NCBI GenBank assembly: GCA_964472395.1
Contig: CAYYMM010000007.1
Location: 1,911-65,910 of the forward strand
Direction: 5' to 3'
Source of the DNA: an uncultured bacterium
Lineage (GTDB): Bacteria > CSSED10-310 > CALFER01
DNA: 64,000 nucleotides
This document shows positions 7,155-64,000 of this stretch, one piece after another; the first letter of the stretch is position 1; each line of letters opens with the position of its first letter. A model generated the notes under the pieces. The model was given only the letters and a program-made list of their open reading frames with translations. It searched no databases and had not been told where the DNA came from. The position numbers and the translations under genes were made by a program.

Positions 7155-7217
7155 CAAAAAAACCAATACCCCTTTATAGCAGGATCACCGTACGGGCGGT
7201 TCGTGAACCACCCCCGG

Positions 7218-7345
7218 ATGGGCGCATGGGCGGATGGGCGCATGGGCGGATGGGCGCATGGGCGCATGGGCGGATGGGCGCATGGGCGGATCGCGATCCG
7301 CCCAGACAGCCCAGACAGCCCAGACAGCCCAGACAGCCCAGACAC
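7218..7345. repeat. Compound simple-sequence repeat: (ATGGGCGS)x9, an embedded GGGCGGAT-CGCG-ATCCGCCC palindrome, then (CCCAGACAG)x5
   Basis: Direct reading: 9 tandem 8-mers at 7218-7289, palindrome at 7284-7303, and five 9-mers at 7301-7345. It lies 40 nt upstream of the ABC exporter start. Confidence 0.9.
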
Positions 7346-7382
7346 GAACCCCCCTTGCCAGTCGATACCCCTGGAGGATTAC

Positions 7383-41280: not shown

Positions 41281-44200
41281 ATGAACCGTTCCGTTCGACA
41301 GTCGCCAGCAGGATTTCTTCGAGGCATTTTGCTCGCCATGAGCCTGCTCTCGGTTTTCCTGCCCAACCTTCATGCATTTACCGAAGCCGAACCCAGTGTG
41401 CTGGAGCGTGATCTTCTGATTCCTCCAGATGCCTCCATCCTCGTTTCCCCTTCTCTTTCTCCCTTCTTCCTCTCCGGCAACAATCCGCCTTCAAATCCGC
41501 GCATTCTGAATTTCATGACTCGCTACGGTGCGCAATGGGATGTGCAGTGGGATCTGCGATCCGATCGGCCGGATCTGATCTCGGGACAAGGCATCCCGCT
41601 GATCCCAGGCCCCGGCAACTCGCTAACGCTCAGCGATGTGACTGTCATGGGGAAACCGATCCAGACACTCGATCGCACCGCCATGTCGGAACTCGCGATC
41701 CAGTTCATCGAAGATCAGTTCGACGTGCTTCGGGTCGAACCCGCCGATCTCAAACTCGATGAACTCGCGACAGAAACCTTCGGGAACAACCGGCTATGGT
41801 TCGTGGTCTTCAACCAGGTGCATCGCGGGATCCCGGTCAAGCACGCGCAGGTGTTCGTGCGGGTGAACTCGGGAAACGTCACGCAATTCGGCGCTCATCG
41901 GTATTTTCCGGTTGATCCGTCTTTGAATACGGTTCCGACGATCCGCGCCGAAAAAGCGCTCGAAATAGCCACGGCCCACGCCGACCGTCTCGCATTCGGC
42001 GACCTCGACATCGTCGATCCTCCTGAACTACTCTGGATTCAGACTTTCACTGAGACCGACGACCTGATTCCCGGTGAGCCATTCACCGGAACGCCCGGAC
42101 AGGGCTATTCACATCGGCTCGTTTGGGAAACGCGCTTTCGGCTCGATCCCAATCCTGAAACATGGTTTGCCGTCATCGATGCGCAATCGGGAGAGATCCT
42201 GTCGTTTCGCAATGACAATCGCACCGCTGCCGTTTCCGGAGGTGTCTATCCGGTCACCAACATCGATACGGAAGTGAACCTGCCGTTTTCGTTTGCGAGC
42301 ACCTCACAGGGAACCGCGACGAGCGGCGGTCGATATACGTACACGGGTGGTACGGCTTCCTGCACCATGAATGGTCAATATGTCCGGATCAGCGACAACT
42401 GCGGATCGATCAACCTGTCAACCTCGGCGGATCCCGGAGATTTGAACTTCGGCGGCAGCGCCGGGCAGGATTGTACAACACCTGGGTTCGGCGGTTCGGG
42501 TAATACACACGCCTCCCGATCCTGTTACTTCCATGTCAACGACATCAAGATGAAGGCACGAGGGTATCTGCCGTCCAACTCGTGGCTGCAGCAGAATATG
42601 ACAGCCAATGTCAATATCAACGATACCTGCAACGCCTACTGGAACGGCAGCACGATCAATTTCTATCGATCCGGTGGGGGCTGTTCGAACACCGGTGAAA
42701 TTTCTTCGGTATTTCTGCATGAGTGGGGTCATGGGCTGGATGACAACACCGCTACCGGATCGCCGGACATGGCATCCGCGGAAGCACTCGCCGACAGCAT
42801 GAGCTTCCTGCATACTCAGGTGTCGTGCATCGGCCACAACTTTCAGCCCGGATCGCCCTGCAGTTTCGGGTGCGATTCGACCTGTACCGGTGTTCGTGAC
42901 GCCGGTGTGAGACCGTTTGTTCGGCCGTCCAACATCACGTCGGCACCGGCGAATTGCGACCGCTGGAGCTGCCCGTATTACGGGTACGACGGGATCATGG
43001 GATACGAGGGACACTGCGAAGCCCTCATCGCCGCAGGCGCCATCTGGGATGCCGCCAATAAACTCGCCACTCAGATGGGAGGAAAGGCCGGATGGGAACA
43101 CGCCAATCGTCTGTTCTTCGAAACGATGGGAAGCGCAGGAGCAGCCTACCAGATCCAGTCCGGCGGGACGTGTAATCCGAGCGCCACGATCAATGGTTGC
43201 GGGAGTACGAACTATTATCAGACCTGGATCTTTGCGGACGACGACAATGGAAATCTCGCAGACGGAACGCCTCATGGATGCGAACTGTGGAACGCCTTCA
43301 ACGACCATGGCATTGCATGCGGCACACAACCGGCCTGTTACACGACCTGCCCGACGATCTCGACACCCACACTTGCCGTCATCCCCGGTGATGACTCGGC
43401 CACCGTTTCCTGGTCATCCGTACCGAACGCCTCTACCTACCGGGTTTTTCGAAACACTGTCGGCTGCAATTTCGGGATGACTCTGATCGGAACGAGTTCG
43501 ACCACGCAATATGTCGACAGTTCCGTCGCGAATGACTTTACTTACTACTACGCCGTCCAGGCTGTCGGTTCGAACGACGCCTGTGTTTCGGCTTTTTCGA
43601 CCTGTCAGGCCGTCGAGATCACGGGATGCGCCAACCCGCCGCTGGTCGATGCCGGAGGCAACCAGGAGACCTGTCCGGGACAGGCGGTGACAATCGGAGG
43701 CAATCCGACGGCATCGAGCGGTACACCACCTTTCACCTATCTGTGGACACCAGGCAACTATTCAAGTTCCAATCCGTCGGTCAGTCCGAACCAGACGACA
43801 ACCTACACGGTGTTTGTGACCGACGGCATCGGCTGTGTGGGATCGGATACCGTCACCGTCACCATCGATTCGCCCCCGACGAATGCCGGATTCGACCAGT
43901 TCACGTGTGCGGGGCACTGCGTCCAGATCGGAGCCGCTCCGGTATCGGGATACACCTATCAATGGTCTCCAACGACTGGCCTTGACAATCCGACCATCGC
44001 CAATCCGATGGCGTGTGTCTCGCAGACCACGACCTATACGTTGACAGTCAATGCCTCCGGGTATCTCTGCCAGGGACGCGACACCGTCGTCGTGACAGTC
44101 GCTCAACCGTCTCTGTCCTTCGATAACGCCGATGTCATTTCGGATTCCGGTGATTCGGACGGATCGCCAGAATCCGGCGAACGGATCCAGATCAGAATCA

Positions 44201-45946: not shown

Positions 45947-46129
45947 ATGTGGAGACCATCATTCGGCGAAATCTTACTGATACTGGCAATCGTGATCATG
46001 ATCTTCGGAGTCAAACGGTTACCCGAAATCGGAACCAGCATCGGGCAGGCATTTAAAAACCTGAAAAAATCTCTTTCGGAAGACGATAAACCCAAGCTCC
46101 CGCCTTCCGATGAACAGCCGAAGCAGTAA
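45947..46129 (+). CDS. tatA: Twin-arginine translocase subunit TatA/E
   Basis: MWRPSFGEILLILAIVIMIFGVKRLPEIGTSIGQAFKNLKKS (TM helix + amphipathic helix with FG hinge). Confidence 0.8.
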   Translation: MWRPSFGEILLILAIVIMIFGVKRLPEIGTSIGQAFKNLKKSLSEDDKPKLPPSDEQPKQ

Positions 46130-46179
46130 TCGCCCATCTTCGCCTGTCCGGCACGACATGATGTGCGAAGTCTGTCAAC

Positions 46180-46893
46180 TCATTTGAGGGTTTGTTTGAT
46201 CTGCTGGAGTTCTTTGTGCAGCTGAATCATTCCCAGAATGGTGCGATAGACGGCCGAGGGTTTGACAGTAGTCTGACCGGCATGACGCGGCAGGTGCGTG
46301 ACACCGATTTCTTTGACTCTGAATCCATACACGACCGCCTTGGCCATGATTTCCGTATCCACCATGAAGTGCTCCGACTTGATCTTGATCCTGTCGAACA
46401 CTTCCCTGCGGAAAAATTTGAACGCACAATCCACATCCCGAACCGTGAATTTAAACACCGCGTGAGACATCAGATTGAAACAACGGGAGACGAATTTACG
46501 GATCCATGGATCCTGGCGATCTTTCCGATATCCCACCACCAGATCGAAATCCCGAGTGTACGGCAACAATAGATCGATCTCATCCAGCTTGAACTGGCAG
46601 TCGGAATCCGAGTAAAAGATCAGGGATTTTTTTGCGTTCGTGAAACCGGTCCGCAGAGCTGCCGTATAGCCGCGGTTGGGTGTATGCGTATAGACGACAA
46701 GATTGGCGTATTGCGTCTGAAGTCGCCTCAACACGTTCGCTGTGTCATCCAGCGAGCCATCATCCACGACGATGATCTCGTAATCGGACGAAACCTTGCG
46801 AACCGCCGCATCGGCCTCGGCAAGCAATCGATCCAGGTTGTCCTGTTCGTTGTATGCCGGAAAAACCATTGAGATCGAGTAATCAGAGTTCAT
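46180..46893 (-). CDS. GT2-family glycosyltransferase, polyprenol-phosphate sugar synthase (DPM1/GtrB-like, soluble)
   Basis: ISMVFPAYNEQDNLDRLL...YEIIVVDDGSLDDT (DxD region) and a typical GT-A core. Start chosen at MNSDYS (ORF track extends to 47004). Confidence 0.75.
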   Translation of the reverse strand: MNSDYSISMVFPAYNEQDNLDRLLAEADAAVRKVSSDYEIIVVDDGSLDDTANVLRRLQTQYANLVVYTHTPNRGYTAALRTGFTNAKKSLIFYSDSDCQFKLDEIDLLLPYTRDFDLVVGYRKDRQDPWIRKFVSRCFNLMSHAVFKFTVRDVDCAFKFFRREVFDRIKIKSEHFMVDTEIMAKAVVYGFRVKEIGVTHLPRHAGQTTVKPSAVYRTILGMIQLHKELQQIKQTLK

Positions 46894-46970
46894 AAACACC
46901 TCGTTGTGAATGTCTCTGGCTCCTTCATTATACATCTTTCGGCGTGGCGAACCATAGAAATCTCCCGGAT

Positions 46971-47579
46971 TCAGTCCTTTTTCCGGCAAACCACCATTGT
47001 CCATGGAAACGGTCTGAGCACCACCGCGATACGGAAGTATTCGTCGAGCAACCGGAGAATTCCGCGGCGGGACCAGTGCTGGACATGTCCGGGTGTGTTA
47101 CCAAGATCCCGGATATAGCGCCCCGAGATCACATTACCGATCCTCCAGACCGGTTCCCATGGTACGCTGATGATAAAATCCCGGCGACCAACACGCGCGA
47201 GCTCCTCCAAACCGGCTCGGATATCCGTGAGATGTTCGAGCACTTCGAGTGCCAGAACCAGGTCGTAACTCCTGTCGCGAAACGGGACAGCCCCGCACGA
47301 TGCCTGAGTAAAACACGATGCCTGCGCCCGATTCATGGCCCGTTTCAGTTCCTCAAATCCCAGATCCAACCCGCATGCGACAGGCATCGGCTTCCATCTC
47401 CGCCTCACACGCTCCAGCATGACTCCGTCTCCACATCCGATCTCAAGGACGGAACGCGGAGGCGCGATGACATGCGTCGCCTGGTCGAACGCGTTGAGAA
47501 ATCCGGTCATGAGCCATTTCGTCACCGGGTTATTCGAATCGTATTTATTGTATTGATTGCCCAAAGGAACCCGGTTCAT
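46971..47579 (-). CDS. Class I SAM-dependent methyltransferase
   Basis: VLEIGCGDGVMLERV (motif I); YDLVLALEVLEHL. Confidence 0.7.
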   Translation of the reverse strand: MNRVPLGNQYNKYDSNNPVTKWLMTGFLNAFDQATHVIAPPRSVLEIGCGDGVMLERVRRRWKPMPVACGLDLGFEELKRAMNRAQASCFTQASCGAVPFRDRSYDLVLALEVLEHLTDIRAGLEELARVGRRDFIISVPWEPVWRIGNVISGRYIRDLGNTPGHVQHWSRRGILRLLDEYFRIAVVLRPFPWTMVVCRKKD

Positions 47580-51755: not shown

Positions 51756-51970
51756 CTTTGTTTGAGTCTCCACTGTTGTCCTTGATGACCTCCTCAATCG
51801 AAGCAGTAAAAAGCTCGTTAGAATAGCGTACCATACATTTGCTTCGCAATCGACAGCAACGGTATACATCATGTCATTGTTCCGAACTCCGGATTTTTAC
51901 GGCACAAATCCGATGGTTATGCTATTGTGGAATGTCGTCAATGTCTGACTGGAACGCCGAGGGCATTTTC

Positions 51971-52921
51971 ATGAAACTCGTGATCCAAATCCCCTGCTTC
52001 AATGAAGAAGCCAACCTCGCACGCACCATACGCGATCTTCCGGATCGGATCGATGGGATCGATTCGATCGAGATTCTGGTGATCGATGATGGATCGACAG
52101 ATCGCACGATTTCGGTTGCGCGCGAGTCAGGTGTGCATCACGTCCTCCCACTCAACTCACATCTCGGACTCGCCCGTGCATTTTCGGAGGGAATCCGGTA
52201 TAGCATCTATCAACTTCAGGCCGACATCATCGTCAACACCGACGCCGACAACCAGTATCAGGCAAGCTTCATTCCGGATCTGATCCGGCCCATCATGGAC
52301 AACATCGCGGATATCGCAGTCGGATGTCGACCGATTCATCGAATCCCGCATTTTTCAACCAGCAAAAAGCTCCTTCAGAAAACCGGAAGTGCCCTGGTCC
52401 GATTCCTGACCGGTTTCAAGGTAGATGATGCGGCCTCGGGATTTCGGGCTTACAACCGTCGCGCGGCACGACGCATCAAGATCGTTTCGGATTTCACTTA
52501 CACGATCGAATCGCTGATTCAGGCCAGCCGAAGTGGCTTTCGCTTGAGGTCCGTTCCGATCGAGATCAATCCGCCCGTTCGCCCGAGCCGCTTGTTTCGA
52601 GGAGCATTTGGATACATTACCCGGCAGATCATGACCATGTTACGAATTTGGGCACTTTACAGCCCTGTCAAGCTGTTCGTCCGCACCGGTGTTCTCAGCC
52701 TGGTATTGGGAAGCGGGCTTCTCCTTCGCTTTGTCTATTATTACCTCATTTCCTGGCCGGAACCATCCGGCAAAGTTCAATCGCTCATCATCTCCAGTGT
52801 GTTTTTGATGTTTGGGCTGTTCCTGGTCCTGATCGGAGTCATTGCCGATCTGCTCGCGGTCAATCGCAGACTGACCGAGGAAGTGATTGATCGGCTGGAC
52901 GAGATTGATTTCAAGGAATGA
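51971..52921 (+). CDS. GT2-family polyprenol-phosphate glycosyltransferase (ArnC/GtrB-like, with 2 C-terminal TM helices)
   Basis: MKLVIQIPCFNEEANLARTI...ILVIDDGSTDRT...DADNQY, and C-terminal TM helices (VLSLVLGSGLLL..., FLMFGLFLVLIGVIADLLAV). Confidence 0.8.
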   Translation: MKLVIQIPCFNEEANLARTIRDLPDRIDGIDSIEILVIDDGSTDRTISVARESGVHHVLPLNSHLGLARAFSEGIRYSIYQLQADIIVNTDADNQYQASFIPDLIRPIMDNIADIAVGCRPIHRIPHFSTSKKLLQKTGSALVRFLTGFKVDDAASGFRAYNRRAARRIKIVSDFTYTIESLIQASRSGFRLRSVPIEINPPVRPSRLFRGAFGYITRQIMTMLRIWALYSPVKLFVRTGVLSLVLGSGLLLRFVYYYLISWPEPSGKVQSLIISSVFLMFGLFLVLIGVIADLLAVNRRLTEEVIDRLDEIDFKE

Positions 52922-55899
52922 TATCGATGAAGACGCTTTCCCGAGCTATGTCCCTTTATCTACTGATCGTCATCCTGACGGCATGCAATACCTCCCCCGA
53001 ACTTCGGAAAATCCAGAACCGTCAATTGCAGCAGATCGGATCAGCCGGATCCGAACCGGGTGAGTTTCAGGAACCCCGTGGGCTTCATGCCGGACCGGAT
53101 CAAACACTTATCGTAACAGACTTCCGGAACTATCGGATTCAGCAAATCGATCGGAACGGGAAAGCGTTGCATTCGTGGGGGAGCAAGGGAAACGGCCCCG
53201 GAGAATTGAACGATCCGGCTGACGCTGTGATGGATTCGGAGGGGAATCTATATGTCGTCGACACGTGGAATCATCGTATTCAGAAGTGTCTGGCGAACGG
53301 AGAATGGCAACTGAATTGGGCTTCCGGAACGGATTTTTACGCGCCTCGCGGCATCGCGGTCGACTCGAATAAAAAGGTCTATGTTGCGAATACCAGCCAA
53401 CACAATATCAAAGTGTTCAACTCGACCGGAAAACTCCTTGCGACCTGGGGATCCAAGGGAACAGCGCGGGAGCAATTTCATGATCCGGTCGGCCTGGCTA
53501 TTGGCCCCGACGGCAATCTCTATGTCGCCGACACCGGGAACCATCGACTCAAAGTTATCGGACCGGGTGGGCAGGTGCTCAGTGTCTTTCCAATTCCGGA
53601 TCTTGATGGAGAGGCGTTCAACGAGACATTTGTTTCGGTCGGACCGGATGGAAAGATCTTCCTGTCTGTGCCCCAGCTCAATCACATTCTCGTCCTGAAC
53701 ACCGACGGATCGATTTTCAGTCGTTTTGGGAAGAAGGGAGGAGGACCGGAAGAGCTTTTCTATCCGACAGGAATCCTGGTCGACGAGAGTCAGTCCATCT
53801 ATATCTCGGATTCACTGAACCATCGGATAGTCAAATACACCTATCCATCCCCATTGGTTGCTCAGACACCCACGAAGCAGTCCACTCTACATCGGATTCT
53901 CTCAATCACCCGAATCGTCCTGGATCTCATCGCCCTGATTATTGTAATCGTCGCGCTGACCCGGAAACTACGCTCACGAAATAGGCATGTTTTATCACTC
54001 GAGAAAACACGAGAACCGTCAAAGATTCAGTTAAAAATCCGGAAGATGTCTGGATACCCCAAAACACTTCTGATGCTGTTTCTGTCAGGATCGACAGCTG
54101 TCGGAGTGTCACTTTGGCTATATTCGATCGATAAGCCCGGATTGGCATCGATTATCGCAGTTGTCGGGCTTGTTCTGATTGCTCTGCAGGAGATGCCGCG
54201 GACAAATAGCGAGTCTTTTCCTCGTGAATCACGGGACATGACCCGAAATCGTGTTCTGATGCTCACGTTGATTCTATTGTGCATCACGGTGCTGTTACGG
54301 GTTTACCGGTTTGACGAGATCCCTTGGGGAATAAACAACGACGCGGCTTGGAATGGCACGTTTGCACGTCTGTTTCTGGACGGGAAAGAACCGTACACCC
54401 CATTCACCGATCAGGCATGGGGCAAGGAAACCATGTACTTCTATCTCGTGGCACTGAGTTTTAAGTTATTCGGGATCAGTCGCACAACATTGCTTCTCCC
54501 CGGCCTCGTGATCAGCATTCTGACCGTTCCAGTACTGCTCCTGTTTTTAAAAAAATTATTCGGATGGCGGTTTGCATTCATTACGGCGTTTGTATTTTCT
54601 GCAACTGCCTGGAACATCGTGTTTTCCAGGACCGGGTACCGCGCAGTCCAGGCTCCGCTGTACCTGTTGCTGACACTCGGGTTTTTCTATCTCGCCGCCG
54701 ACACCTCTCGTTGGTATCACAAACTTCTTTACTATAGTGCCGCAGGATCATCACTCGGAATCGGATTGAATACTTACTTTTCATTCAGAGGCATCCCCAT
54801 TCTGATGATCGTGATCGGAATCTTCACCTGGATTGAACACCGACACTTCATGCGCAAAAACTGGTGGGGCCTGGTATTGTTCCTGCTCTTCGCAATTCTA
54901 TTCTTTACACCTCTGGCCATTTATGCATACCACAACTACTCGACATTCATGGCGCGTTCCAATTTCCTGTTTGTTGGGAAGAAGATTCAGGAGTCCGGAT
55001 CACTCACCCCGCTATTCGACAACATCTACAGAAATTTTCTGGTGTTCACGTACAAGGCGAAAGTCGGCAACTTCTTCAACAATGACTGGCCCATCATCAC
55101 TCGGTTTCTGGCCTTCTTCGCGCTGATCGGCAGTGCGGTCCACGTGCGGCATTGTTTCTGTCGCGGATCGTTCACGACCTTGATGATTTTCTGTTTCGGC
55201 ATTCTTCCAGCTGTTTTATCGGAACCCGATGCTGCACGGGGGATCATGAGTCCCATCGCGATCGCCATTTTCGCAGCAACCGGAATCGTCAGCATGCTGA
55301 GACTTTTACCGCGTTCGACCCCGAATCTGCTTCAGAACTCTGTGCTTGCCATGATTGTACTCGCAATCATGTGCTTTGAGAGTCACTTTTACTTCGTCAG
55401 GCTTGGGACGAATTACTTCGCTCAGTACGGATATGCCTGTAAAAACACTCAGATTGGCATAACGGCTTCGGAACTCGCAAAGAACAACCAGATTTACATA
55501 TCCCAGGCACACTTTATCGACACACCCAAATTCCTCTGTTATGGAATCCCTGGAGACATTTTTGGGATTACGAATGGTGAGGTCATCGAGGTTGTGTCGG
55601 ATGACACACTTATGAAAAACCTGCAGCGTATATTAAATACACCGGTTCCAAAGGGGAAAGGTCTGGCATTCATTCTCGAGAGTCATCACAAGAACGACCC
55701 CATATTTGAGGCGATCCGTGAATCCCAACCGGACGGTGAGTACAAGGTGTTTCGCGATAAAAGACTCGGGATCGAGCCAATTTACTATACATACGTCGTT
55801 CCAGCAGACAAAGTCCGTCGTATAGGGAGCGAATCAATCGATCCGGCTAATGAGCAGGACTCTGAAAATCCTACCGAGGTGGATTCGGAATCTTTGTGA
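52918..55899 (+). CDS. Lipoprotein with N-terminal NHL-repeat beta-propeller fused to a C-terminal GT-C-like polytopic membrane domain (993 aa)
   Basis: Lipobox LTACNT; NHL repeats (VVDTWNHRIQK, YVANTSQHNIKVF, YVADTGNHRLKVI, YISDSLNHRIVKY); then >=10 TM helices with an ArnT-like first loop (RVYRFDEIPWGINNDAAWN). ATG overlaps the upstream GT2 stop. Confidence 0.7.
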   Translation: MISMKTLSRAMSLYLLIVILTACNTSPELRKIQNRQLQQIGSAGSEPGEFQEPRGLHAGPDQTLIVTDFRNYRIQQIDRNGKALHSWGSKGNGPGELNDPADAVMDSEGNLYVVDTWNHRIQKCLANGEWQLNWASGTDFYAPRGIAVDSNKKVYVANTSQHNIKVFNSTGKLLATWGSKGTAREQFHDPVGLAIGPDGNLYVADTGNHRLKVIGPGGQVLSVFPIPDLDGEAFNETFVSVGPDGKIFLSVPQLNHILVLNTDGSIFSRFGKKGGGPEELFYPTGILVDESQSIYISDSLNHRIVKYTYPSPLVAQTPTKQSTLHRILSITRIVLDLIALIIVIVALTRKLRSRNRHVLSLEKTREPSKIQLKIRKMSGYPKTLLMLFLSGSTAVGVSLWLYSIDKPGLASIIAVVGLVLIALQEMPRTNSESFPRESRDMTRNRVLMLTLILLCITVLLRVYRFDEIPWGINNDAAWNGTFARLFLDGKEPYTPFTDQAWGKETMYFYLVALSFKLFGISRTTLLLPGLVISILTVPVLLLFLKKLFGWRFAFITAFVFSATAWNIVFSRTGYRAVQAPLYLLLTLGFFYLAADTSRWYHKLLYYSAAGSSLGIGLNTYFSFRGIPILMIVIGIFTWIEHRHFMRKNWWGLVLFLLFAILFFTPLAIYAYHNYSTFMARSNFLFVGKKIQESGSLTPLFDNIYRNFLVFTYKAKVGNFFNNDWPIITRFLAFFALIGSAVHVRHCFCRGSFTTLMIFCFGILPAVLSEPDAARGIMSPIAIAIFAATGIVSMLRLLPRSTPNLLQNSVLAMIVLAIMCFESHFYFVRLGTNYFAQYGYACKNTQIGITASELAKNNQIYISQAHFIDTPKFLCYGIPGDIFGITNGEVIEVVSDDTLMKNLQRILNTPVPKGKGLAFILESHHKNDPIFEAIRESQPDGEYKVFRDKRLGIEPIYYTYVVPADKVRRIGSESIDPANEQDSENPTEVDSESL

Positions 55900-58800
55900 T
55901 CATGTGGCGGTGTGTTTCGACGACTAGGATAGACCCGTCAGGCAGAACCGAGAGTCCCATGGGAAGTGTCAGGCGACGTCCATCCGGTCGCTGATCGACC
56001 GTTTTCAGCAGAGTTCCGTTCCGATCTGTGACATACAAGCGATTGGCGTTGGGATCAGATATCCAAACCTGATCTTGCTGATCGACGACGATGTATGGTT
56101 CGACGAACACGTTTCCCTCCCAACCATTAACAGGCCATTCCCGGAGGTAGTTCAATTCCGAATCGAACACTTGAACACGTCTGTTCTTTGCGTCATTCAC
56201 GAACACCTCACCTTTACTCACACAAATACCGATCGGTTCGACAAACTGGGACGGTCCCTTTCCCAGGGTTCCGATACTTTTAACGAGCTTACCCTGAGTG
56301 GTGAGTTTGACGATTCGGTTGCGTCCTGAATCCGCGACATACAAAAAGCCGTTTCCGTCGGCTGTCAATCCTCTCGGATAGAAGAAAGCGCCGTCGGCAT
56401 CACGCCATTCGCTTATATACTGACCATCATGATCGTATTTCTGGATTCGATTGTTAAATGTATCAAGAACATAAACACCAGCCTTGTCGACGGCAATATC
56501 ACACAGATCGTTGAATCCTTTGTCCTCTTCCGATATCGGACTTTCCCATAAGAAGAGAAAGTTACCCAGATTATCGAATTTCTGCACGCGGTGATTTCGG
56601 AAATCTGCGATGTAAACGAATCCTTCGGAGTCGACATCGAGCGATCGGGGTTCACGGAACTGACCTCTCGCTTCTCCCTCACCACCTTGATACATCGTTC
56701 GCGGCGGGCTGTTTCGGATCTGTTCGATCCGGGCGAGTTCCGCCTGTCGTTCCTGCTCGATACGATCGGCCTCCTCCTGGATCAGACGCTGTTGCAGTTC
56801 GGCAAGTGCGTCATTCCCCGAGGCGACCTTCGCGAAATCCACATTGATACCGTAGTCATTTACCTGATAGATGATCACTTCACTGTTCGCGTAGACCGGA
56901 GTCATGTAGTCGGTCAGTTCACTAAATTTATTCAGTCCGGTCTCCGAGTACTGCTTCCGCTCGGTCTTGCCTACAAAAATCAGGTTGACATTGTAGTTCC
57001 GCAGATGTTCGAGTACCAGAGGGATGTCGAGGCTGTCATAAATTGTCTTGATCCCAATCTTGATGCGACCTGTATCGCGTTTATACTCCCGTTGATCCAC
57101 ATGGCTCCACCAACCGAGCACAGTCGGGATCCCCGTATTTGCCGAAATCCGTCCGAACTCGTACAGGTAATCCGCGCCCGTCGCCTCAAGAATCACTGCA
57201 TCGGATGGAGCATTTCTGCTCAACCACTCGATCGCTCTGTATTCCTGCTGCAATCGCCCAGTTTTCATATAGGCGTGACCATCGAGTGTAAGAGGAAGTT
57301 TCTCACGCGCGTATTCATCATGATGACGTCGGGCATACGGTCCCATAACTGTGAAGATCAGCGCTGAACCTAGAAAGAAAAGAAATACAAGATTCCACGC
57401 CCATCCTGCGGCGCGATGCCGCAAACCGGATCGGGTCGCCGCGAACATTCGCACCCGGCGTCTGACACCAACGAGATATGATGCGACAAGAGCGAAGAAG
57501 AACCAGGCCTGCATGTAGAATTTGAATATCGTGTTGAACCGTCGATGATCACCACCCTGATAGAAATCCTTTATGTAAACGATTTCACATCCGGCGGTAA
57601 TCGCGAATGCCATGAACGATATTAGGTAGACAAATCGTCGATCCCCATCCTGCAGTTCTTTTGAACCGAGATACACGATCAGACCGATCATCCCAAGGCT
57701 GTACAGAAAAACGGAATAGTCGATCTTCAAGAAGAAGAGACCGCCGAGCAACATGACGATCAAAATGGCCACGTACGAGAATCCGATGCCGAACACCCGC
57801 ATCAGCGACCGACCTCGACCTCGTTCATATCCGATCCAGATCTTGATTAGAATTGTAGTCAGAATAAACAGGTAGAAACCGAACATGGTGAAAAAGCCAT
57901 CGAAATTCGTCGTTTGTTTATGCTCGAACAGAAAGCCGATTCCCATGTCCTTGCGGGAGAAATGCATCAGATACGGGAGATACAGAGCAATGCTGACGCC
58001 GATCAGAATCAACCATGGGAGGAGAATCTGAGAAAAATTGCGCTTGATGGGTATTGCACCCAGGAGATGGCTGATCATGGAGACCGTATCACGGAAAAAC
58101 GCAACAGGGAATCGTAATCCGCGACGGGCTTTGGTGGGAACAGGTTGAGGAAACTCCTCGACCGGAGCGAGCGCAAGAATTTCCTGCTCCATTCGATCCG
58201 GAATCTGATCAGACTCCTCGGGTTGATCGGTATCATTAACCGGGTTGACCGGTTCCGTGCCCGGAGCTACGGTAACAATCTCTTGAACCTCAACAGGTTC
58301 GATCGCAAGCGGAATAGCCTCTTCACAAACAGTCTGAGTCCGATTTTCGAGTTCGACTGTCTCAACGGATGCCGGTGTCGCCGCGGTTATGGGTATGATC
58401 TCCTCGACAAGTGAAGATTCAGGTGTTGCTGCAGCAGGAGGCAACTCTTCGGAAGTAACCGGTTCAGGCAGCGGTTCAATCGGAAGTTCGGCGGATTTCC
58501 GATATTCGACTTTCGTGGAACGCGGCCAGAAGAACATGAGAATCAGGAGTACCAGAAGCAGGTAAGTGGGGTAATCCCAGCTGTTCGTTGGAATCATGGC
58601 GCCGAATCCGATACCCGCGACCAGAACGGTACACCAGGCTGTGATTCCGGATCCGAAGATACCGCTTTGATTGATCTTGTTTCTGTAAAAGACGAATACG
58701 AGTGCCAGGCAGAACGTTGCGATGAACGTAGCGATGGTGTGTGCGTGCAGATCCATGAAATTATAGCTCCAGAATGGAAATTCATGGACCGTCGGATTGA

Positions 58801-61486
58801 TTAGCTCATGAGCGGATCTGAAGAAACGGAATTGGGAGGCGGGACGCCCCAGCATGAAAAATAGATCTGTTACCCACTCGAGACCTCGGGCAAGATCCCA
58901 GTAAGGTGTGGTTTTCGCGTTATTCACAAAAATCCGCACAATTTGAACCAGGCCATCGAGATTCCCGACCAGGATCGTGATGATTACACAGAGACATCCG
59001 ATCCACATTCTTCGGGTCAGAGTGATGGCAATCGAGGCGATCGAAAGCGCGACGAACGTCGGGATCGTCGCGAAAAACAGGTTGTAACCGTAACGCGCTT
59101 CGACTCCAGTGAACTTGGTGAGAAAGCCGGCGAGGTACTGACCGAAGTAATAGTAGTTGATTCCCTCCCCCTCGATCCATGGATCGATCGGCGGGAAATA
59201 ATCAGTCCGGAGCACGGCATTCATGAAGCCGAAGTCCATTGAACTTTCGCTCCAGAAGATATCTGGATTGTAGCTTTTCAACAGAAGGAAAATCGTCAGG
59301 ACAGAAAAGAAGAGGAGTTCATACCCGAGAACCGACCACCATCTTTCACGCCAGAATTGCCGGATCTCGCTGCGGTGACGCACCAGAAGCAGTCCATTTA
59401 AGACAGCCACCACAGTGATGACCAGCCAGATTAGTGTCTGGGAAAACGGGAATATTCTCAGGCTCGCAATCAACCAAGTGAGGTAACCCACCACCAGAAG
59501 GCCACCGGCTTTAGCAAGCGGATAGCCGGCATGTGGAAACCGGTGAAAGATGACAAACATGAGTGGGAAGACGACGAAACCAATAAGTTCAACGGCTAGA
59601 ATCCATCGAACAACGGGGAAATTGACTCGTGACCCGATTCGATCCACCGGTTCCATCGTCAGAATGTCTTCATAGGACAACTGCTTGATTTCAGGAGGTG
59701 GAGAAACGAGATATGTCAGGATCTGTTCCTTGGTCAAAACGCTCTGCTTGACAAAAACAGCCACCTTCGGATGCTCATACACCGAAAAACTCTCATCGGC
59801 AGTCTCATCCCGAAACACCATTCGACCCAGTCGTGGCGGATTTGAAAACGAGGCGGCATATCTGAAACCCAATTTTTCGGAGAACAACGCTCGATAGAAG
59901 TTGTTTGATATGGGATATCGGTCTGGTACCCGGAGAACAGACCCATAATGGCGTTTGGACGGCAAGATGATGACATCTCCTTCGGTAAGGATTTCGGCCA
60001 TCTTCGATGCTTTCTGCGCGTTATCCGGTTCCTGGTAAATCTCCAGTTTTTTCTGCTCGCCATATCGCGTCGAGTTACCCTCATCCGTGCCGATCGGCAG
60101 GCTATCATCCCAACCGCTTTCGAGCACGATTCGAGCGCCGGCGGGGATATTCTTGTACACCCAGTTGGAGGCCTCAACCCGAGTATCCGTACGGTTGTAT
60201 ACATTCAGGAACGCCAGTGCCCACAGAGCGGTCAGCCCGACAACAAGGGTCGTTGCAGCTCTGCCCCATACCCTCCCGATCTGTTTGTTGATGCCATGAA
60301 GCCATTTCGCTGCGAATATGCAGAAAAATGGTAACAGCGGCAATGTATATCGGAGAAACTTTACCTCGAACGTGCTATTGAGAATGAACAGAGGAACAAC
60401 CCAGATCAGGATGATTCGATTTCCGATATCGAGCGGCTTTTTGAAAAACCGCGCGATCGCATAAGCGAATCCGACAAATGCAGCGATTCCCAGGGGGATT
60501 CCCACCGACCAAAGCACCATGTTTTCGATCAGATACAGAAAAGGCGTCGTGTGCGCATACTGGATGGTATACGGCAACCGAACCTTTCCCGACACCATGT
60601 TGGCCTGTTCACGCACATCACGCAACCAGGTTCCGTGATCAAGAATCCAATAGGGCATGCATATGGACATGACAACGACGGAAAACACCAGGGCCAGCCC
60701 CCAGTGCATCTGGTGCGATAAACTTCTGCGGCGCTTTTCCAGCATGGCGATGAGGTGAGCGAATCCGTACACGAGATAGATTGGCAGGCTACTGAACTTG
60801 GTCGCCATCGCAAAGCCGATGAACAAAGCCGAGTAATAGTAATCTCGGTACTTTTCACCTAAACTGGCTCGAACCGCATAGTAAATCGCACATGTGATAA
60901 AAAATGTTTGGATTCCGTCCACGATATAGAAGTGAGCCTGCTGGATCGAAAGTACCGTCAGGGCGAAGAGGAGTGCGGCGAGAAGTGCCGTTTTTCGGTT
61001 GTACAAGAGTTGCGCCAAATGAAATATTACAATGATTGTCAATGTCGAAAACAAAGCAGACAAGAAACGCCCCGTCAGAGTCCTTTGCTTCAAATCGTTC
61101 ATGTTCGGAAAGTAATTGCGTATGTCATCCATCCATGCAGGGCTCAACTTCAGTGCACTCGCCAGATTGACCACATTTCGATTCACCCAGCCGACGGTTT
61201 CCGTCGTGCCTCTCAGAAGATAAATCGGCAGCGAACCATAGGCGAAGAAGTGTGGATTCATGTCTGAGAGACTGATATCCCCTGTTTTGTACATGACCTG
61301 TCGTTCGTCTGGATGGAAGTAGTGAGGCATACCCCAGTTTATTCCGTACAGGCGGAAGAACAAGCCGATGCACACGATCAGGAACAATGCCCAGTTGCGG
61401 CCTCGCGGGCGAGAGAAATGGAGTGATGAGCGGTAGGATTCCATCCTCTTAACCCTCCTTGGATGGCCGGTTTTCAGAGAATTCAT
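55871..61486 (-). CDS. Giant 1871-aa membrane protein: ArnT-like GT-C domain + Chlor_Arch_YYY (DUF2298)-like GT-C domain + coiled coil + C-terminal NHL beta-propeller
   Basis: N-terminal first loop GMPHYFHPDERQVMYK; middle domain FGFMNAVLRTDYFPPIDPWIEGEGINYYYFGQY, paralogous to the 784-aa protein; acidic/Pro linker; coiled coil LAELQQRLIQEEADRIEQERQAELARIEQ; NHL repeats (YIADFRNHRVQKF, VLDTFNNRIQKY, YVADSGRNRIVKL). Confidence 0.7.
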   Translation of the reverse strand: MNSLKTGHPRRVKRMESYRSSLHFSRPRGRNWALFLIVCIGLFFRLYGINWGMPHYFHPDERQVMYKTGDISLSDMNPHFFAYGSLPIYLLRGTTETVGWVNRNVVNLASALKLSPAWMDDIRNYFPNMNDLKQRTLTGRFLSALFSTLTIIVIFHLAQLLYNRKTALLAALLFALTVLSIQQAHFYIVDGIQTFFITCAIYYAVRASLGEKYRDYYYSALFIGFAMATKFSSLPIYLVYGFAHLIAMLEKRRRSLSHQMHWGLALVFSVVVMSICMPYWILDHGTWLRDVREQANMVSGKVRLPYTIQYAHTTPFLYLIENMVLWSVGIPLGIAAFVGFAYAIARFFKKPLDIGNRIILIWVVPLFILNSTFEVKFLRYTLPLLPFFCIFAAKWLHGINKQIGRVWGRAATTLVVGLTALWALAFLNVYNRTDTRVEASNWVYKNIPAGARIVLESGWDDSLPIGTDEGNSTRYGEQKKLEIYQEPDNAQKASKMAEILTEGDVIILPSKRHYGSVLRVPDRYPISNNFYRALFSEKLGFRYAASFSNPPRLGRMVFRDETADESFSVYEHPKVAVFVKQSVLTKEQILTYLVSPPPEIKQLSYEDILTMEPVDRIGSRVNFPVVRWILAVELIGFVVFPLMFVIFHRFPHAGYPLAKAGGLLVVGYLTWLIASLRIFPFSQTLIWLVITVVAVLNGLLLVRHRSEIRQFWRERWWSVLGYELLFFSVLTIFLLLKSYNPDIFWSESSMDFGFMNAVLRTDYFPPIDPWIEGEGINYYYFGQYLAGFLTKFTGVEARYGYNLFFATIPTFVALSIASIAITLTRRMWIGCLCVIITILVGNLDGLVQIVRIFVNNAKTTPYWDLARGLEWVTDLFFMLGRPASQFRFFRSAHELINPTVHEFPFWSYNFMDLHAHTIATFIATFCLALVFVFYRNKINQSGIFGSGITAWCTVLVAGIGFGAMIPTNSWDYPTYLLLVLLILMFFWPRSTKVEYRKSAELPIEPLPEPVTSEELPPAAATPESSLVEEIIPITAATPASVETVELENRTQTVCEEAIPLAIEPVEVQEIVTVAPGTEPVNPVNDTDQPEESDQIPDRMEQEILALAPVEEFPQPVPTKARRGLRFPVAFFRDTVSMISHLLGAIPIKRNFSQILLPWLILIGVSIALYLPYLMHFSRKDMGIGFLFEHKQTTNFDGFFTMFGFYLFILTTILIKIWIGYERGRGRSLMRVFGIGFSYVAILIVMLLGGLFFLKIDYSVFLYSLGMIGLIVYLGSKELQDGDRRFVYLISFMAFAITAGCEIVYIKDFYQGGDHRRFNTIFKFYMQAWFFFALVASYLVGVRRRVRMFAATRSGLRHRAAGWAWNLVFLFFLGSALIFTVMGPYARRHHDEYAREKLPLTLDGHAYMKTGRLQQEYRAIEWLSRNAPSDAVILEATGADYLYEFGRISANTGIPTVLGWWSHVDQREYKRDTGRIKIGIKTIYDSLDIPLVLEHLRNYNVNLIFVGKTERKQYSETGLNKFSELTDYMTPVYANSEVIIYQVNDYGINVDFAKVASGNDALAELQQRLIQEEADRIEQERQAELARIEQIRNSPPRTMYQGGEGEARGQFREPRSLDVDSEGFVYIADFRNHRVQKFDNLGNFLFLWESPISEEDKGFNDLCDIAVDKAGVYVLDTFNNRIQKYDHDGQYISEWRDADGAFFYPRGLTADGNGFLYVADSGRNRIVKLTTQGKLVKSIGTLGKGPSQFVEPIGICVSKGEVFVNDAKNRRVQVFDSELNYLREWPVNGWEGNVFVEPYIVVDQQDQVWISDPNANRLYVTDRNGTLLKTVDQRPDGRRLTLPMGLSVLPDGSILVVETHRHMITKIPNPPR

Positions 61487-63803
61487 ACAAAGCGGTCTTT
61501 TTCCCGTCGGCGTCGGTCAATTCGATCACTTTTTTCATGAAACCTTCGAACTTCTGGACATTCGCCTGCGGGTACTGTTCGCGTTCCAATCCTCCGTAAA
61601 AGATATATCGAATACCCCATTTCCGGATGAGCTGTGTTGCCTTCGTGATATCGGTTGTTGTGTAAATCTCTTTGGTATCATTGACCCGCTCACTGATCTG
61701 GTTCCATGCGCCGCGCCGCCAGATGTTTTCATGATTGGCCCATCCCAGCAATGTGCTCATACCGGTCGCAGCCGAAATTCGACCGTAATGTGAAAACGCC
61801 GGTCCGGTTGCCTCGAGTACGGTATCCGACGGCTTCCCGTTTTTTTTCAGATACTGAATCGCCTGGTAATCTCCGGGAAAACGCCACGACATGTAATAAA
61901 TCCCCTCCATCGTGACCTTCGCATACTGATTAGAAGGTTTGAAGGCAGCGAAGTGGTCGCATTTTACGGTAGTTCCCAGGATGGGAAACGCAAGCGTGAA
62001 TAGAAAGAGTATCCGGAAGGAGGTTTCCCAAAGATCCGTCCACCACGCCTTCACATGCTCTCGTATCCAGTACACACCATACAGGGACGACAATCCACAG
62101 AAGATCCATGCCTGATAATAAAACTTGAAGATTGTATTTTGTCGTTCAAGGGTCTTGCCGTAATCATCCTTGAGATAGATGAATTCGCAGCCGAGAAGAA
62201 TGAGCAGAACGACAAACAGCAGCGATAACGCGAAAAACTTGTTCTTCGAATGGATATCGTCATGGTCGAGGGGAACTCGGAGCAACAGAACGAGCAGCAG
62301 GATACATATCGCGATCATCGAGGTTCCAAATGCGACCAGACTGACGATGAAGAGAAAACCGATCGCAGACAGGATCAGGACATTCAATCGGGGCGCGAGC
62401 TCATTGAATCGGGGAACGACGAGAGCGAGAATGAAACTGATCAGACAAAAGAAAAAGAAACCGTAGATGGTGATGAAATCGTCGATGAGAGTTCGCTGCT
62501 CCGGATTGACCAGACGGGGGCCATCGGTCCCTTTAGCATCAAAATTGGCATAGTAGGGGGAGTAGAGCACAAACGAGACGGCGATCAGAGCGACAATGAT
62601 AATCATGGCTGTCGCCCAATTACGCCAGGATTTTTTTAGGGCATTTCCAGGCTTTAGGAGATTCGAGAGTTCGCGGAACGGCGTCAGTAGCATTGCACCG
62701 AATGTCGAAGCGGAAGTTTTAAGAAAAAACTGTCGACCGAACACGAATGTCAGTGTGAGAATGCTATAGTATGTGGGGAGATCCCATGTGTTGGCCGCCG
62801 GGATGGCACCAAGAGCAATCGCAACGAAAAACAGCCGGAAATAGAGATCTCGACCCTTTCCCAAAATGGACAGACCATCCCCCGCGGATCGAAGCACTTC
62901 CAGGGAAATCGCAAGCACAGCGAGAGAAAACGGTACGACATTGACGTGTGCATGTAAATCACCCAGGATGTAACTCCAGAATGGAAACTCATTGATTGTG
63001 ATGTCCACCCCCTCACGCACAATCACTCGAGAACTCATCCACCAGTTGAACCATTGAAACGGATACAACTGACCATTCCCAAACACAACCTTTCCGATTT
63101 GAGTAAACGTCTGAAAGATGGCATCGAGATTTCCGATGAACGCAACGAACATGCCTCCCATGAAAGCGTATCCACGGCGTCCGGTCAGTGCGAACGAAAT
63201 CGAGGTGGCATTTAGAAATGTGATCGCGAACAGAAACGCGATTCCAAGATTGAACGTGAACTCAGGTGCGATTCCCGACAGTTTGCTTAGAAGCGCTATC
63301 TGATAGTGCCCATAGTAGAAATAGTTGATTGTCCCGCCATGATACCAGGTATCTTTCGGCGGAAAATACTCACTGTTCAAAATCGCCGTCAGAAATGCAA
63401 AATCGGGCATCTTCTCTGTCGAGGCGATATCCGGATTGCACATCCGGATGATTCCAAAGAACACAAAACACCCCAGAAATGTCAGTTCAGTGAATAGGAC
63501 ATGTGGGCGGTTTTCTTTGAAATAACGAAGTATCTCCCCGAGGGGTTCCTGCGTCAGGAAATAGGATAGGCAAGCTATAATGACGAGAGTCGTAGCGATC
63601 GAGACAAGAGAGAACGGGAGAATGTGTAAACTGCACAGAATCCAGTTGAAGAAGCAAACTGCCACCAAACCGATCCCTTTTGTCAGAAGATATCCTCGAT
63701 CAGGAAATGACCTGAAAAAGCGTCGGGTCAGAGGCAACGCTAGGAGACCGATGATGCTGATCAACAACCACCAATGAACGATGTACATGATTCCGGAGAT
63801 CAT
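61449..63803 (-). CDS. Chlor_Arch_YYY/DUF2298-like polytopic membrane protein (putative GT-C glycosyltransferase), 784 aa
   Basis: FAFLTAILNSEYFPPKDTWYHGGTINYFYYGHY parallels the middle domain of the 1871-aa protein. There are >15 TM helices, plus a soluble C-terminal domain (YIFYGGLEREQYPQANVQKF) homologous to the corresponding region of the giant protein. Confidence 0.7.
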   Translation of the reverse strand: MISGIMYIVHWWLLISIIGLLALPLTRRFFRSFPDRGYLLTKGIGLVAVCFFNWILCSLHILPFSLVSIATTLVIIACLSYFLTQEPLGEILRYFKENRPHVLFTELTFLGCFVFFGIIRMCNPDIASTEKMPDFAFLTAILNSEYFPPKDTWYHGGTINYFYYGHYQIALLSKLSGIAPEFTFNLGIAFLFAITFLNATSISFALTGRRGYAFMGGMFVAFIGNLDAIFQTFTQIGKVVFGNGQLYPFQWFNWWMSSRVIVREGVDITINEFPFWSYILGDLHAHVNVVPFSLAVLAISLEVLRSAGDGLSILGKGRDLYFRLFFVAIALGAIPAANTWDLPTYYSILTLTFVFGRQFFLKTSASTFGAMLLTPFRELSNLLKPGNALKKSWRNWATAMIIIVALIAVSFVLYSPYYANFDAKGTDGPRLVNPEQRTLIDDFITIYGFFFFCLISFILALVVPRFNELAPRLNVLILSAIGFLFIVSLVAFGTSMIAICILLLVLLLRVPLDHDDIHSKNKFFALSLLFVVLLILLGCEFIYLKDDYGKTLERQNTIFKFYYQAWIFCGLSSLYGVYWIREHVKAWWTDLWETSFRILFLFTLAFPILGTTVKCDHFAAFKPSNQYAKVTMEGIYYMSWRFPGDYQAIQYLKKNGKPSDTVLEATGPAFSHYGRISAATGMSTLLGWANHENIWRRGAWNQISERVNDTKEIYTTTDITKATQLIRKWGIRYIFYGGLEREQYPQANVQKFEGFMKKVIELTDADGKKTALYEFSENRPSKEG

Positions 63804-63863
63804 CGCACCTCCTATGCATCCTGATCGGGTCCGACTGAAGGATCAGAGCGATTCAGAGAAGTC

Positions 63864-64000
63864 TCAGTGCTTTTCTGCGTTGAAAACCTGAACCCGATGA
63901 TTCATCGAATCCACAACGAATACCTTGTTTGACGCGATGGTGACGCCGACCGGATTCTTGAACAGATCCTTTGTCGATCCTTCCTGACCCCAGAACGCCT
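63864..64000 (-). CDS. NHL-repeat protein, C-terminal fragment (gene continues beyond window end)
   Basis: The reverse strand translates ...FVVDSMNHRVQVFNAEKH*, a canonical NHL repeat. Stop at 63864-63866. Confidence 0.55.
   Translation of the reverse strand, partial: AFWGQEGSTKDLFKNPVGVTIASNKVFVVDSMNHRVQVFNAEKH

Follow-up and report, generated by a model that had tools for sequence, protein, structure and literature searches.

We analysed a 64,000-nt stretch of DNA from an uncultured bacterium of candidate division CSSED10-310 (GenBank assembly GCA_964472395.1, contig CAYYMM010000007.1, positions 1,911–65,910; hereafter the window), which contains an uninterrupted minus-strand open reading frame (ORF) of 1871 codons plus stop at 55871..61486. 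We propose that this ORF encodes an inner-membrane polypeptide of about 27 transmembrane (TM) helices, in which two different, probably active GT-C glycosyltransferase modules that depend on lipid-linked sugars are joined to an extracytoplasmic six-bladed NHL β-propeller. We regard this reading as reasonably likely. The first module is of the PMT/ArnT/TMTC type (the N-module), and the second belongs to the Chlor_Arch_YYY/DUF2298 family (the YYY module). Both gave confident AlphaFold2 (AF2) models whose significant structural matches were to GT-C enzymes only, and each has its own invariant set of acidic, His and Lys residues in loops predicted to face outward. The initial annotation, made from the sequence alone, had described two distinct GT-C-type modules in one chain, and this description stands; the alternative of a single non-GT fold was not borne out by domain analysis of the AF2 models or by Foldseek.

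Most glycoconjugates of the cell surface are built or decorated by GT-C enzymes; examples are N- and O-glycoproteins, modified lipid A, mycobacterial arabinan and the sugars of teichoic acids. Proteins with the architecture of the target are already in databases under uninformative or misleading names: its homologs are called ‘DUF2298 domain-containing’, ‘YYY domain-containing’, ‘glycosyltransferase family 39’ or ‘PknD’. Its unusual feature is the presence of two different GT-C modules in one chain, and no single-chain dual GT-C enzyme was described in the literature that we searched for tandem GT-C enzymes. Residue numbers throughout refer to the 1871-aa product.

The N-module

Two Pfam families matched the N-module at aa 136–276, namely PMT_2 (PF13231; E = 2.2e-14, 54.4 bits against a gathering score of 26.1) and PMT (PF02366; 9.2e-11, 42.2 bits against 22.7). 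The AF2 model of aa 1–620, built from a family alignment, had a predicted local distance difference test score (pLDDT) of 93.4 and a predicted template-modelling score (pTM) of 0.92, with 11 TM helices and, judged by loop charge, a cytoplasmic N-terminus. Searched against the PDB with Foldseek, it matched 35 chains at E<1e-3, every one of them GT-C; ALG12 was the best (4e-9), followed by Pmt4 (2e-6) and ArnT (2.5e-6), and STT3, AglB, ALG9, DPY19 and PglB were also found. By sequence, a clean 39-member profile of the N-module reached Pmt1 (4e-8), STT3A (2e-5) and ArnT (0.012) as well as Pmt4 and PIG-M, and the single sequence matched no solved GT-C member among the PDB sequences. As modelled, the N-module has the GT-C fold.

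The ArnT/PMT-like first-loop motif that had been recognised in the initial annotation (HYFHPDERQVMYK) is present. H58-P59-D60-E61 is invariant in 39 of 39 N-modules, fused and split, including those of candidate phyla radiation (CPR) bacteria and of Methanoperedens. It lies directly after TM1 (aa 32–46), at the start of the helix at 59–70, and a check of the first outer loop for a catalytic Asp or Glu found D60 and E61 as candidates. The same acidic pair has been equated across Pmt1 (D77/E78), ArnT (D55/E56) and the DD motif of TMTC enzymes (PMC7801869). The correspondence of D60-E61 with yeast Pmt1 D77-E78 is positional only and comes from a sub-alignment that is very weak (domain i-Evalue 140), in which Pmt1 RLHGLAWPDSVVF, directly before D77-E78, stands opposite RLYGINWGMPHYF-HP-DE of the target. 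Other invariant residues of the N-module are R45, Y83, G84, R140, Q182, K230, R379, Y380, W459, E565 and H572, the last three in its outer domain, where D460, D488, K492, R512 and D564 are nearly invariant.

The 11-helix plan with a cytoplasmic N-terminus is the one described for PMT, ArnT and TMTC enzymes (PMC7801869). TMTC1–4, PMT and ArnT (GT105, GT39 and GT83) also share with the N-module the first-loop acidic pair, an invariant Lys in a later outer loop (K230 in the target) and an acceptor-side domain, either repeats or a globular fold, at the outer end (PMC7801869). Unlike TMTC and PMT, the target has neither MIR domains nor TPR repeats, its outer α/β domain is specific to the family, and its chain runs on into a second, different GT-C module; similarity is low, with Pmt1 reached by the profile only. 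Because MIR domains gave no match in Pfam scans up to E 10, on sequence grounds we would not file the target under GT39 proper, despite the family 39 labels on its homologs.

The YYY module

The target exceeded the cutoffs of TIGR03662 Chlor_Arch_YYY (446.7 bits against 300.25) and of PF10060 DUF2298 (1.9e-86, 291 bits against 27.8). The signature that the initial annotation had pointed out, DYFPPIDPW...INYYYFGQY, is there, with the YYYxG motif as I-N-Y-Y-Y-F-G at aa 775–781. We aligned the segment pairwise with the adjacent 784-aa protein (61449..63803), and their paralogy, likewise already noted, was seen in two BLASTP blocks, at aa 625–1024 (30% identity, 3e-51) and aa 1149–1526 (29% identity, 1e-34). 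The segment is a single complete Chlor_Arch_YYY/DUF2298 module at aa 621–1545, a span that follows from these two blocks. It had been drawn as a polytopic domain at aa ~650–1300; its polytopic YYY nature is right, and its true extent is larger and takes in a C-terminal globular domain.

An AF2 model of aa 615–1545, again from a family alignment, had a pLDDT of 84.7 and a pTM of 0.85, was disordered only at aa ~996–1125, and contained 16 TM helices plus a globular domain on the outer side. Its 13 best Foldseek matches in the PDB were all GT-C enzymes or AglB C-terminal domains, and the remainder was noise. DPY19 was the best match, with AftA, STT3 and AglB also found, at TM-scores of just 0.29–0.54, and the C-terminal domain weakly matched the AglB globular domains 3vu0 and 3vgp (Foldseek E 0.2–1.3, probability 0.82–1.0). 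On this model the YYY module also has the GT-C fold. Searches of the PDB by sequence, with a single sequence and with a 44-sequence profile, reached no meaningful solved structure, and a Pfam scan of the module up to E 10 gave no second family and no STT3 match.

Since the N-module profile reaches Pmt1, STT3A and other solved enzymes and the YYY profile reaches none, the two modules represent, as judged from their sequences, different GT-C families. A profile–profile comparison of the two gave a weak match (72.7% probability) confined to the final helices and the beginning of the outer domain, which hints at a distant common ancestry and is too weak for any claim.

Residues that are invariant or nearly so in fused and solo YYY proteins fall in all three parts of the module: E747, D751, P765, Y778, E902, P904, D912, H914, H916 and W970 in the first part, D1307, R1316, N1318 and K1322 in the second, and E1434, T1451, W1459, H1462 and E1509 in the globular domain. 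The outer loops of the first part bear E747, D751, the YYY motif (N776–G781), E902 and D912-x-H914-x-H916. E747, D751, E902, D912 and D1307 face outward by the inferred topology and have no match in a solved relative detectable by sequence. The Asp of the D-L-H-A-H motif is replaced by Cys (SCFHAH) in 8 of the 44 YYY sequences, and both His residues are fixed. The Cys carriers form one Ktedonobacteria/Chloroflexia clade (loci L025, L036, L040, L045, L048, L058, L061 and L071); Thermosporothrix retains the Asp. This exchange of Asp for Cys beside two fixed His residues suggests that the D/C-x-H-x-H triad is a metal site.

As a member of Chlor_Arch_YYY/DUF2298 the target module is complete, with all family invariants, and it differs from other members in belonging to a separate ‘fused’ paralog group and in carrying a clade-specific disordered insert that is probably cytoplasmic. 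STT3, AglB, PglB and DPY19 are the best structural matches of YYY and resemble it in having outer-loop acidic residues and an outer C-terminal globular domain; the catalytic base of DPY19 is a Glu in the first outer loop (PMC10154233). YYY differs from these enzymes in its low TM-scores, in lacking detectable sequence similarity, in three extra N-terminal helices before its conserved acidic loop and in a total of 16 helices. The WWDYG motif of oligosaccharyltransferases is likewise absent from the YYY outer domain, where the conserved motif is G-W-x-x-H-x-x-Q (GWWSHVDQ in the target), with only W1459 and H1462 invariant.

Topology and the NHL propeller

Topology was derived from the DSSP helices of the AF2 models together with loop charges. 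A first hydropathy scan gave overlapping segments and missed one short helix, and was dropped. The target N-terminus, with nine Lys or Arg in 31 residues, would be cytoplasmic, and the N-module would end outside after its 11 helices. The YYY module would then start outside, pass through three additional helices before reaching its conserved acidic loop, and end outside after its sixteenth helix (TM16'). The conserved residues of both modules, both globular domains, the spacer and the propeller would face the periplasm or exterior, an arrangement consistent with the positive-inside rule. The propeller is placed outside because it follows the in-to-out helix TM16', and this is supported by the neighbouring 993-aa protein, which exports its NHL domain behind a lipoprotein-type signal peptide (MISMKTLSRAMSLYLLIVILTAC, …LTAC); its order of signal peptide, NHL propeller and PMT_2 is the reverse of that in the target.

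An acidic Pro/Glu-rich stretch (17% E, 15% P; pLDDT <50) had been read as a linker after the second domain. By the two-block alignment to the paralog it is instead an insertion within the YYY module, between two TM helices, in a loop that is probably cytoplasmic because its flanks are rich in Lys and Arg. The insert is 76–416 aa long only in P0001–P0014, the closest 14 homologs, and ~0–15 aa in most others. It appears to be a fast-evolving, clade-specific disordered loop, since it is 49% identical in an ortholog pair that is 88–94% identical elsewhere.

The heptad coiled coil of the initial annotation was reduced to a weak pattern: a single E/R/Q-rich helix of ~35–40 aa (aa ~1553–1592), with 64% hydrophobic a/d positions in its best register. 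The spacer that holds this helix is ~54 aa long only in the same 14 homologs and 20–30 aa in others. From its sequence it could form a short coiled coil or remain a single α-helix.

The C-terminus matched Pfam NHL (3.6e-26, 90.3 bits against 20) and, by sequence, NHL domains in the PDB (range 5e-42 to 1e-26), including Thin (4.9e-42) and TRIM71 (~1e-27). The six-bladed NHL domains of TRIM2 and TRIM3 aligned end to end with aa 1601–1862. Four blades were found by regular expression (~1624, 1715, 1761 and 1853) and two by eye (~1670 and ~1808), at a spacing of 45–47 aa. The C-terminal NHL repeats had been counted as at least five, and the count is now refined to a complete six-bladed propeller. 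A propeller that resembles PknD-derived and TRIM NHL domains, in a family of which one homolog carries the source annotation ‘PknD’, could sense an external ligand, as proposed for PknD, with the polytopic parts signalling or transporting. We consider such a sensor or transporter highly improbable, given that Pfam and NCBIfam scans found no kinase or other output domain, the membrane parts match glycosyltransferases only and the gene neighbourhood is related to glycosylation.

Integrity of the reading frame

The N-module and the YYY module are separate adjacent genes in some lineages, and the window protein is a singleton in the protein collection, as might be expected if the long ORF came from a frameshift, from read-through of two adjacent genes or from an assembly chimera. 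We consider such an artefact next to impossible. Per-domain mapping found the same colinear order in 120 of the 120 best homologs (PMT_2-type module, YYY, then NHL where present). An ortholog that is 88% identical, 1857 aa long and flanked by the same neighbours (locus L001) was recovered twice, from an ENA metagenome assembly and, independently, from a Logan assembly. Together, the colinear homologs and this ortholog exclude a frameshift or chimera. Conservation is good across the junction at aa ~620, and fused YYY modules group together, apart from solo YYY proteins.

The frame annotated at first is intact, and its length of 1871 aa is probably too great. The real start is probably M15 (ATG at 61444), for a product of 1857 aa, because an AAGGAGG Shine-Dalgarno sequence precedes this ATG, the TAA of the upstream gene lies 4 nt before it, and residue 15 of the target is where the alignments with the orthologs P0002 (1857 aa) and P0003 (1875 aa) begin. 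With the annotated M1 start, the ORF would share 38 nt with the upstream YYY gene.

Since every structured part is 88–94% identical to the ortholog in L001, all structured modules appear to be under similar constraint, with none decaying. This bears on the idea that only one module is catalytic and that the other is a scaffold, or an acceptor- or donor-binding pseudo-enzyme, fused for stability. Heteromeric GT-C assemblies with unequal roles do exist, and the activity of both modules is a prediction from sequence. Yet both modules evolve equally fast, and both keep invariant acidic, His and Lys residues across several phyla, whether fused or split, so a single active module is quite unlikely. 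Equal conservation of the modules, their intact motifs and their alternation between fusion and adjacent split genes (below) instead suggest a bifunctional protein.

Distribution, fusion and fission

A homolog search over 5.8 billion protein clusters (E≤1e-10) returned 534 relatives. In a genome scan limited to one genome per species, at least 522 loci encoded relatives of the N-module. The closest were from candidate division CSSED10-310 (48–56% identity), and other carriers belonged to KSB3, Binatia, Anaerolineae, Ktedonobacteria (including the cultured Dictyobacter, Ktedonobacter and Thermosporothrix), Acidobacteriota, Myxococcota, several CPR phyla and Methanoperedens. For YYY, an exhaustive HMMER search gave 6,989 clusters at 50% identity, 2,547 of them at E≤1e-30.

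We took a census of architecture at the best 80 reference-genome loci. The N-module and YYY were fused at 50 loci, as N-YYY-NHL (24), N-YYY (20) or N-YYY interrupted by a contig end (6). At 18 loci they were separate genes on the same strand, and at 12 the N-module stood alone. Module order was conserved across phyla. The gap between split genes was 4–255 nt in most Chloroflexota loci and ~1.6–2.4 kb in CPR and Methanoperedens. Fusion in some lineages and neighbouring separate genes in Ktedonobacteria, CPR and Methanoperedens imply, at the level of gene organisation, that the two enzymes work together. A solo YYY gene was present in 29 of the 50 fused loci, and a GT2 gene within ±10 kb in just six of them.

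A tree built by neighbour joining (no bootstraps) placed the fused YYY modules of five lineages apart from all solo YYY proteins, and in it the solo YYY proteins of genomes with split genes (Ktedonobacteria, CPR and Methanoperedens) grouped with the solo YYY proteins of fusion-bearing genomes. The fused YYY therefore seems to be a separate, old paralog, and not the partner gene captured by fusion; by the same separation of clades, it and the adjacent 784-aa gene are probably old paralogs. An origin of the fused YYY by recent duplication of the neighbouring gene was ruled out by the tree and by the 29–30% identity.

Some relatives are larger, at 2,000–2,750 aa, with P0126, P0130, P0137 and P0138 at 2,050–2,750 aa: one is PMT_2-YYY-YYY, and others are YYY-YYY with C-terminal TPR repeats. 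Chains with several GT-C modules and varied acceptor-side domains thus recur, by domain annotation, among YYY relatives. In Chloroflexi bacterium 44-23, DUF2298 is listed beside PMT2/PA14 and PMT2 genes (PMC8756737, appendix), the only mention of DUF2298 that we found in the literature searched. This is the same PMT2–DUF2298 pairing, with the carbohydrate-binding PA14 in place of NHL.

At five split loci of CPR and Methanoperedens (L043, L064, L079, L081 and L082), a short-chain dehydrogenase/reductase (SDR) and a ~190-aa phosphatase always lay between the N and YYY genes. The SDR (~350 aa) is a GalE/HpnA-like sugar epimerase. The phosphatase was assigned to PAP2 by Pfam at L064 and L043 and by phmmer to the L064 protein at L081 and L082; its ~181-aa counterpart at L079 had no Pfam match. 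The L064 phosphatase, the sole copy compared, has weak similarity to undecaprenyl-diphosphatase. FemAB genes (six loci) and LCP ligase genes (three loci) also occurred nearby. A PRK07233 FAD oxidoreductase (HpnE/phytoene-desaturase-like; 394 bits against a cutoff of 252) adjoins a solo YYY or N gene at seven distant loci, L014, L023, L026 and L078 of the Binatia type and L033, L068 and L079 of the split type. Copies from CPR match those from Binatia very closely (E ~1e-105 to 1e-139). The enzyme may modify the polyprenyl carrier; the window has no copy.

The gene cluster and possible functions

The features of the target and of the cluster around it are listed in Table 1.

Table 1. Parts of the target protein and neighbouring genes of the cluster, with coordinates in the window.
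Feature	Coordinates	Strand	Basis
N-module, membrane part, aa 15–434	60185..61444	-	Pfam, AF2, Foldseek, profile against PDB, DSSP helices and loop charges
N-module, predicted extracytoplasmic α/β domain, aa 435–620	59627..60184	-	AF2, helices and strands mixed, pLDDT >90
H58-P59-D60-E61, putative catalytic acidic pair	61304..61315	-	Start of first outer-loop helix
YYY module, first part, aa 621–989 (TM1'–9' and two outer loops)	58520..59626	-	TIGR03662, PF10060, BLASTP, AF2 mostly pLDDT >90
Acidic Pro/Glu-rich insert, aa 990–1127	58106..58519	-	Disordered in AF2 model, in probably cytoplasmic loop of YYY module
YYY module, second part, aa 1128–1388 (TM10'–16')	57323..58105	-	BLASTP to paralog (aa 1149–1526), AF2, topology
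YYY module, predicted extracytoplasmic C-terminal globular domain, aa 1389–1545	56852..57322	-	AF2 α/β, pLDDT >90
Charged E/R/Q-rich helical spacer, aa 1546–1597	56696..56851	-	Sequence, heptad score
Six-bladed NHL β-propeller, aa 1598–1871	55874..56695	-	Pfam, PDB matches, blade spacing
Solo YYY/DUF2298 protein, 784 aa, directly upstream, co-oriented	61449..63803	-	TIGR03662 509 bits, PF10060 5e-102
NHL + PMT_2 GT-C protein, 993 aa, convergent with target	52918..55899	+	Pfam
GT2, polyprenyl-phosphate-sugar-synthase-like	51839..52921	+	Best AglJ, PpgS, Dol-P-hexose transferase, ArnC; all below NCBIfam cutoffs
PMT_2 GT-C protein, ORF 915 aa, ortholog 878 aa	49125..51872	-	Pfam
MOP/Wzx-type flippase, 503 aa	47576..49087	-	Pfam Polysacc_synt_3 2.5e-22; NCBIfam MOP flippase weak
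Class I SAM methyltransferase, 202 aa	46971..47579	-	Recurring fusion neighbour
Second GT2, polyprenyl-phosphate-sugar-synthase-like	46180..47004	-	Best ArnC 9.9e-30, then PgfS, PpgS; below curated cutoffs

Parts of this cluster recur. The methyltransferase gene adjoins the fusion also in L001, in Binatia L003 and in Vecturithrix L005. The 993-aa NHL + PMT_2 gene is likewise beside the fusion in L001, with a similar PMT_2 + NHL gene in Binatia L003, and a solo YYY, a PMT_2 + NHL protein and a methyltransferase recur beside a Binatia fusion of 31% identity. The ORF of the divergent GT2 at 51839..52921 (360 aa, TTG start) and the 915-aa PMT_2 ORF overlap at their 5' ends (51839–51872); the real starts of both are probably internal, because the L001 orthologs have only 316 and 878 aa.

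In the reading that we favour, the two GT2 enzymes of the cluster would attach sugars to polyprenyl phosphate on the cytoplasmic side, and the resulting lipid-linked sugars would then be flipped across the membrane. Both GT-C modules would act outside the membrane, each taking a sugar from a lipid-linked donor and passing it to a shared acceptor; this would physically couple two glycosylation reactions, which could be successive or complementary. The NHL propeller would keep either the acceptor or a partner protein close to the active sites, in a role like that of the TPR repeats in TMTC, the MIR domains in PMT and the carbohydrate-binding modules (CBMs) in Emb and AftD. The acceptor could be a secreted or surface protein or an envelope glycopolymer. 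There are precedents for a GT-A lipid-sugar synthase that works with extracytoplasmic GT-C enzymes (PMC12041528) and for GT-C enzymes with acceptor-side repeat domains, such as TMTC (PMC7801869).

Several points weigh against this reading. All GT2 matches are below curated NCBIfam cutoffs, and MOP/Wzx-type flippases usually handle diphosphate-linked oligosaccharides, not monophosphate-linked single sugars. The topology was derived from helix order and loop charge, and the helix at aa 971–985 is short. NHL propellers can be enzymes or sensors too. No functional study of either family, N-module or YYY, was found in the literature searched, where DUF2298 yielded passing mentions or the unrelated Y_Y_Y sensor domain.

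The flippase also fits a scheme with mixed donors. STT3, AglB, PglB and WaaL transfer glycans en bloc from polyprenyl-diphosphate carriers, and YYY could similarly transfer a pre-assembled glycan from polyprenyl-diphosphate while the N-module adds single sugars from polyprenyl-monophosphate. The fold matches of YYY include STT3 and AglB, and its C-terminal domain is weakly AglB-like; we also take the D-x-H-x-H triad to recall the metal sites of oligosaccharyltransferases. The PAP2 phosphatase between the N and YYY genes at five CPR and Methanoperedens loci, with the weak undecaprenyl-diphosphatase similarity of the L064 copy, and the LCP ligase near three loci point the same way. However, the window cluster has no initiating phosphoglycosyltransferase and no chain of soluble glycosyltransferases, and both of its GT2 enzymes resemble monophosphate-sugar synthases. 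The outer domain of YYY has G-W-x-x-H-x-x-Q in place of WWDYG, and the best structural match, DPY19, is a Dol-P-Man enzyme. On balance, we judge en bloc transfer by YYY to be a serious alternative but an unlikely one.

Coupled transfer by two GT-C modules, as proposed here, has partial parallels in known systems. Three-component systems (GtrABV, CsbB/YfhO, and the streptococcal PgfS/PgfM1/PgfM2 and GtrB/PgtC2) combine a GT2 that makes polyprenyl-P-sugar with a flippase and a GT-C enzyme; the window cluster has two GT2 enzymes resembling such synthases, a flippase and several GT-C proteins. The two GT-C enzymes of the Pgf operon act on the same protein substrates (PMC12041528). The window cluster differs in that the target fuses two GT-C families and a propeller, the flippase is of the MOP type and not GtrA, and the GT-C families are PMT_2 and YYY and not YfhO. 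EmbA/B/C and AftA–D, which use decaprenyl-P-arabinose, are also several co-encoded GT-C enzymes; they work one after another on a single polymer outside the membrane and have outer acceptor-binding domains, and AftA is among the structural matches of YYY. Emb and Aft proteins are single-GT-C chains with CBMs in place of NHL, and the window has no genes of the decaprenyl-P-arabinose pathway. A pathway of that kind was considered since CPR loci carry PAP2 and SDR genes. It was dropped: the SDR resembles GalE, genes of the UbiA or DprE1 type did not turn up, and neither PAP2 nor SDR is in the window.

A wider proposal, which we offer as speculative and on present evidence somewhat doubtful, is that the N-module and YYY form an obligate two-enzyme machine that builds an unrecognised extracytoplasmic glycoconjugate shared by CPR, Chloroflexota, Acidobacteriota, Binatia, CSSED10-310 and some archaea. 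YYY would then be a new metal-dependent GT-C family with 16 helices, and NHL, TPR or PA14 domains would select the acceptor. The PRK07233 flavoprotein, PAP2 phosphatase and epimerase of related loci and the methyltransferase of this cluster would tailor the carrier or the sugar.

Hundreds of genes have this architecture, so the value of the window gene lies in its family and not in this copy. YYY/DUF2298, with ~7,000 clusters at 50% identity, now has a predicted GT-C fold and an invariant acidic and His set that probably faces outward. By fusion or adjacency it is tied genetically to one PMT_2-like subfamily across distant phyla, including CPR bacteria with minimal genomes and cultured Ktedonobacteria. 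An anonymous DUF thereby becomes a hypothesis testable in the culturable Ktedonobacter, Thermosporothrix and Dictyobacter, and the fusion, as a ready-made single chain, would lend itself to structural studies of two GT-C active sites that may cooperate.

Other genes of the window

Beside the cluster, a 1514-aa protein with a signal peptide (41281–45825, plus strand) is rich in Thr, Gly, Ser and Pro and has a Thr/Pro/Ser linker near aa 1360, with 80% S/T/P over 40 aa. This secreted protein is a candidate acceptor, because S/T/P-rich segments are of the kind decorated by GT-C O-glycosylation systems. A TatA gene (~45947–46130, plus strand) is also found in the L001 locus of the relative. At L001, a further PMT_2 + NHL protein (983 aa; 4632–7583) precedes the solo YYY gene. 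In the window, the cluster probably extends past the edge (63803–64000). The remaining window genes are housekeeping genes, encoding ThrRS, IF3, RNase Y, DXS, RecN and ZapA.

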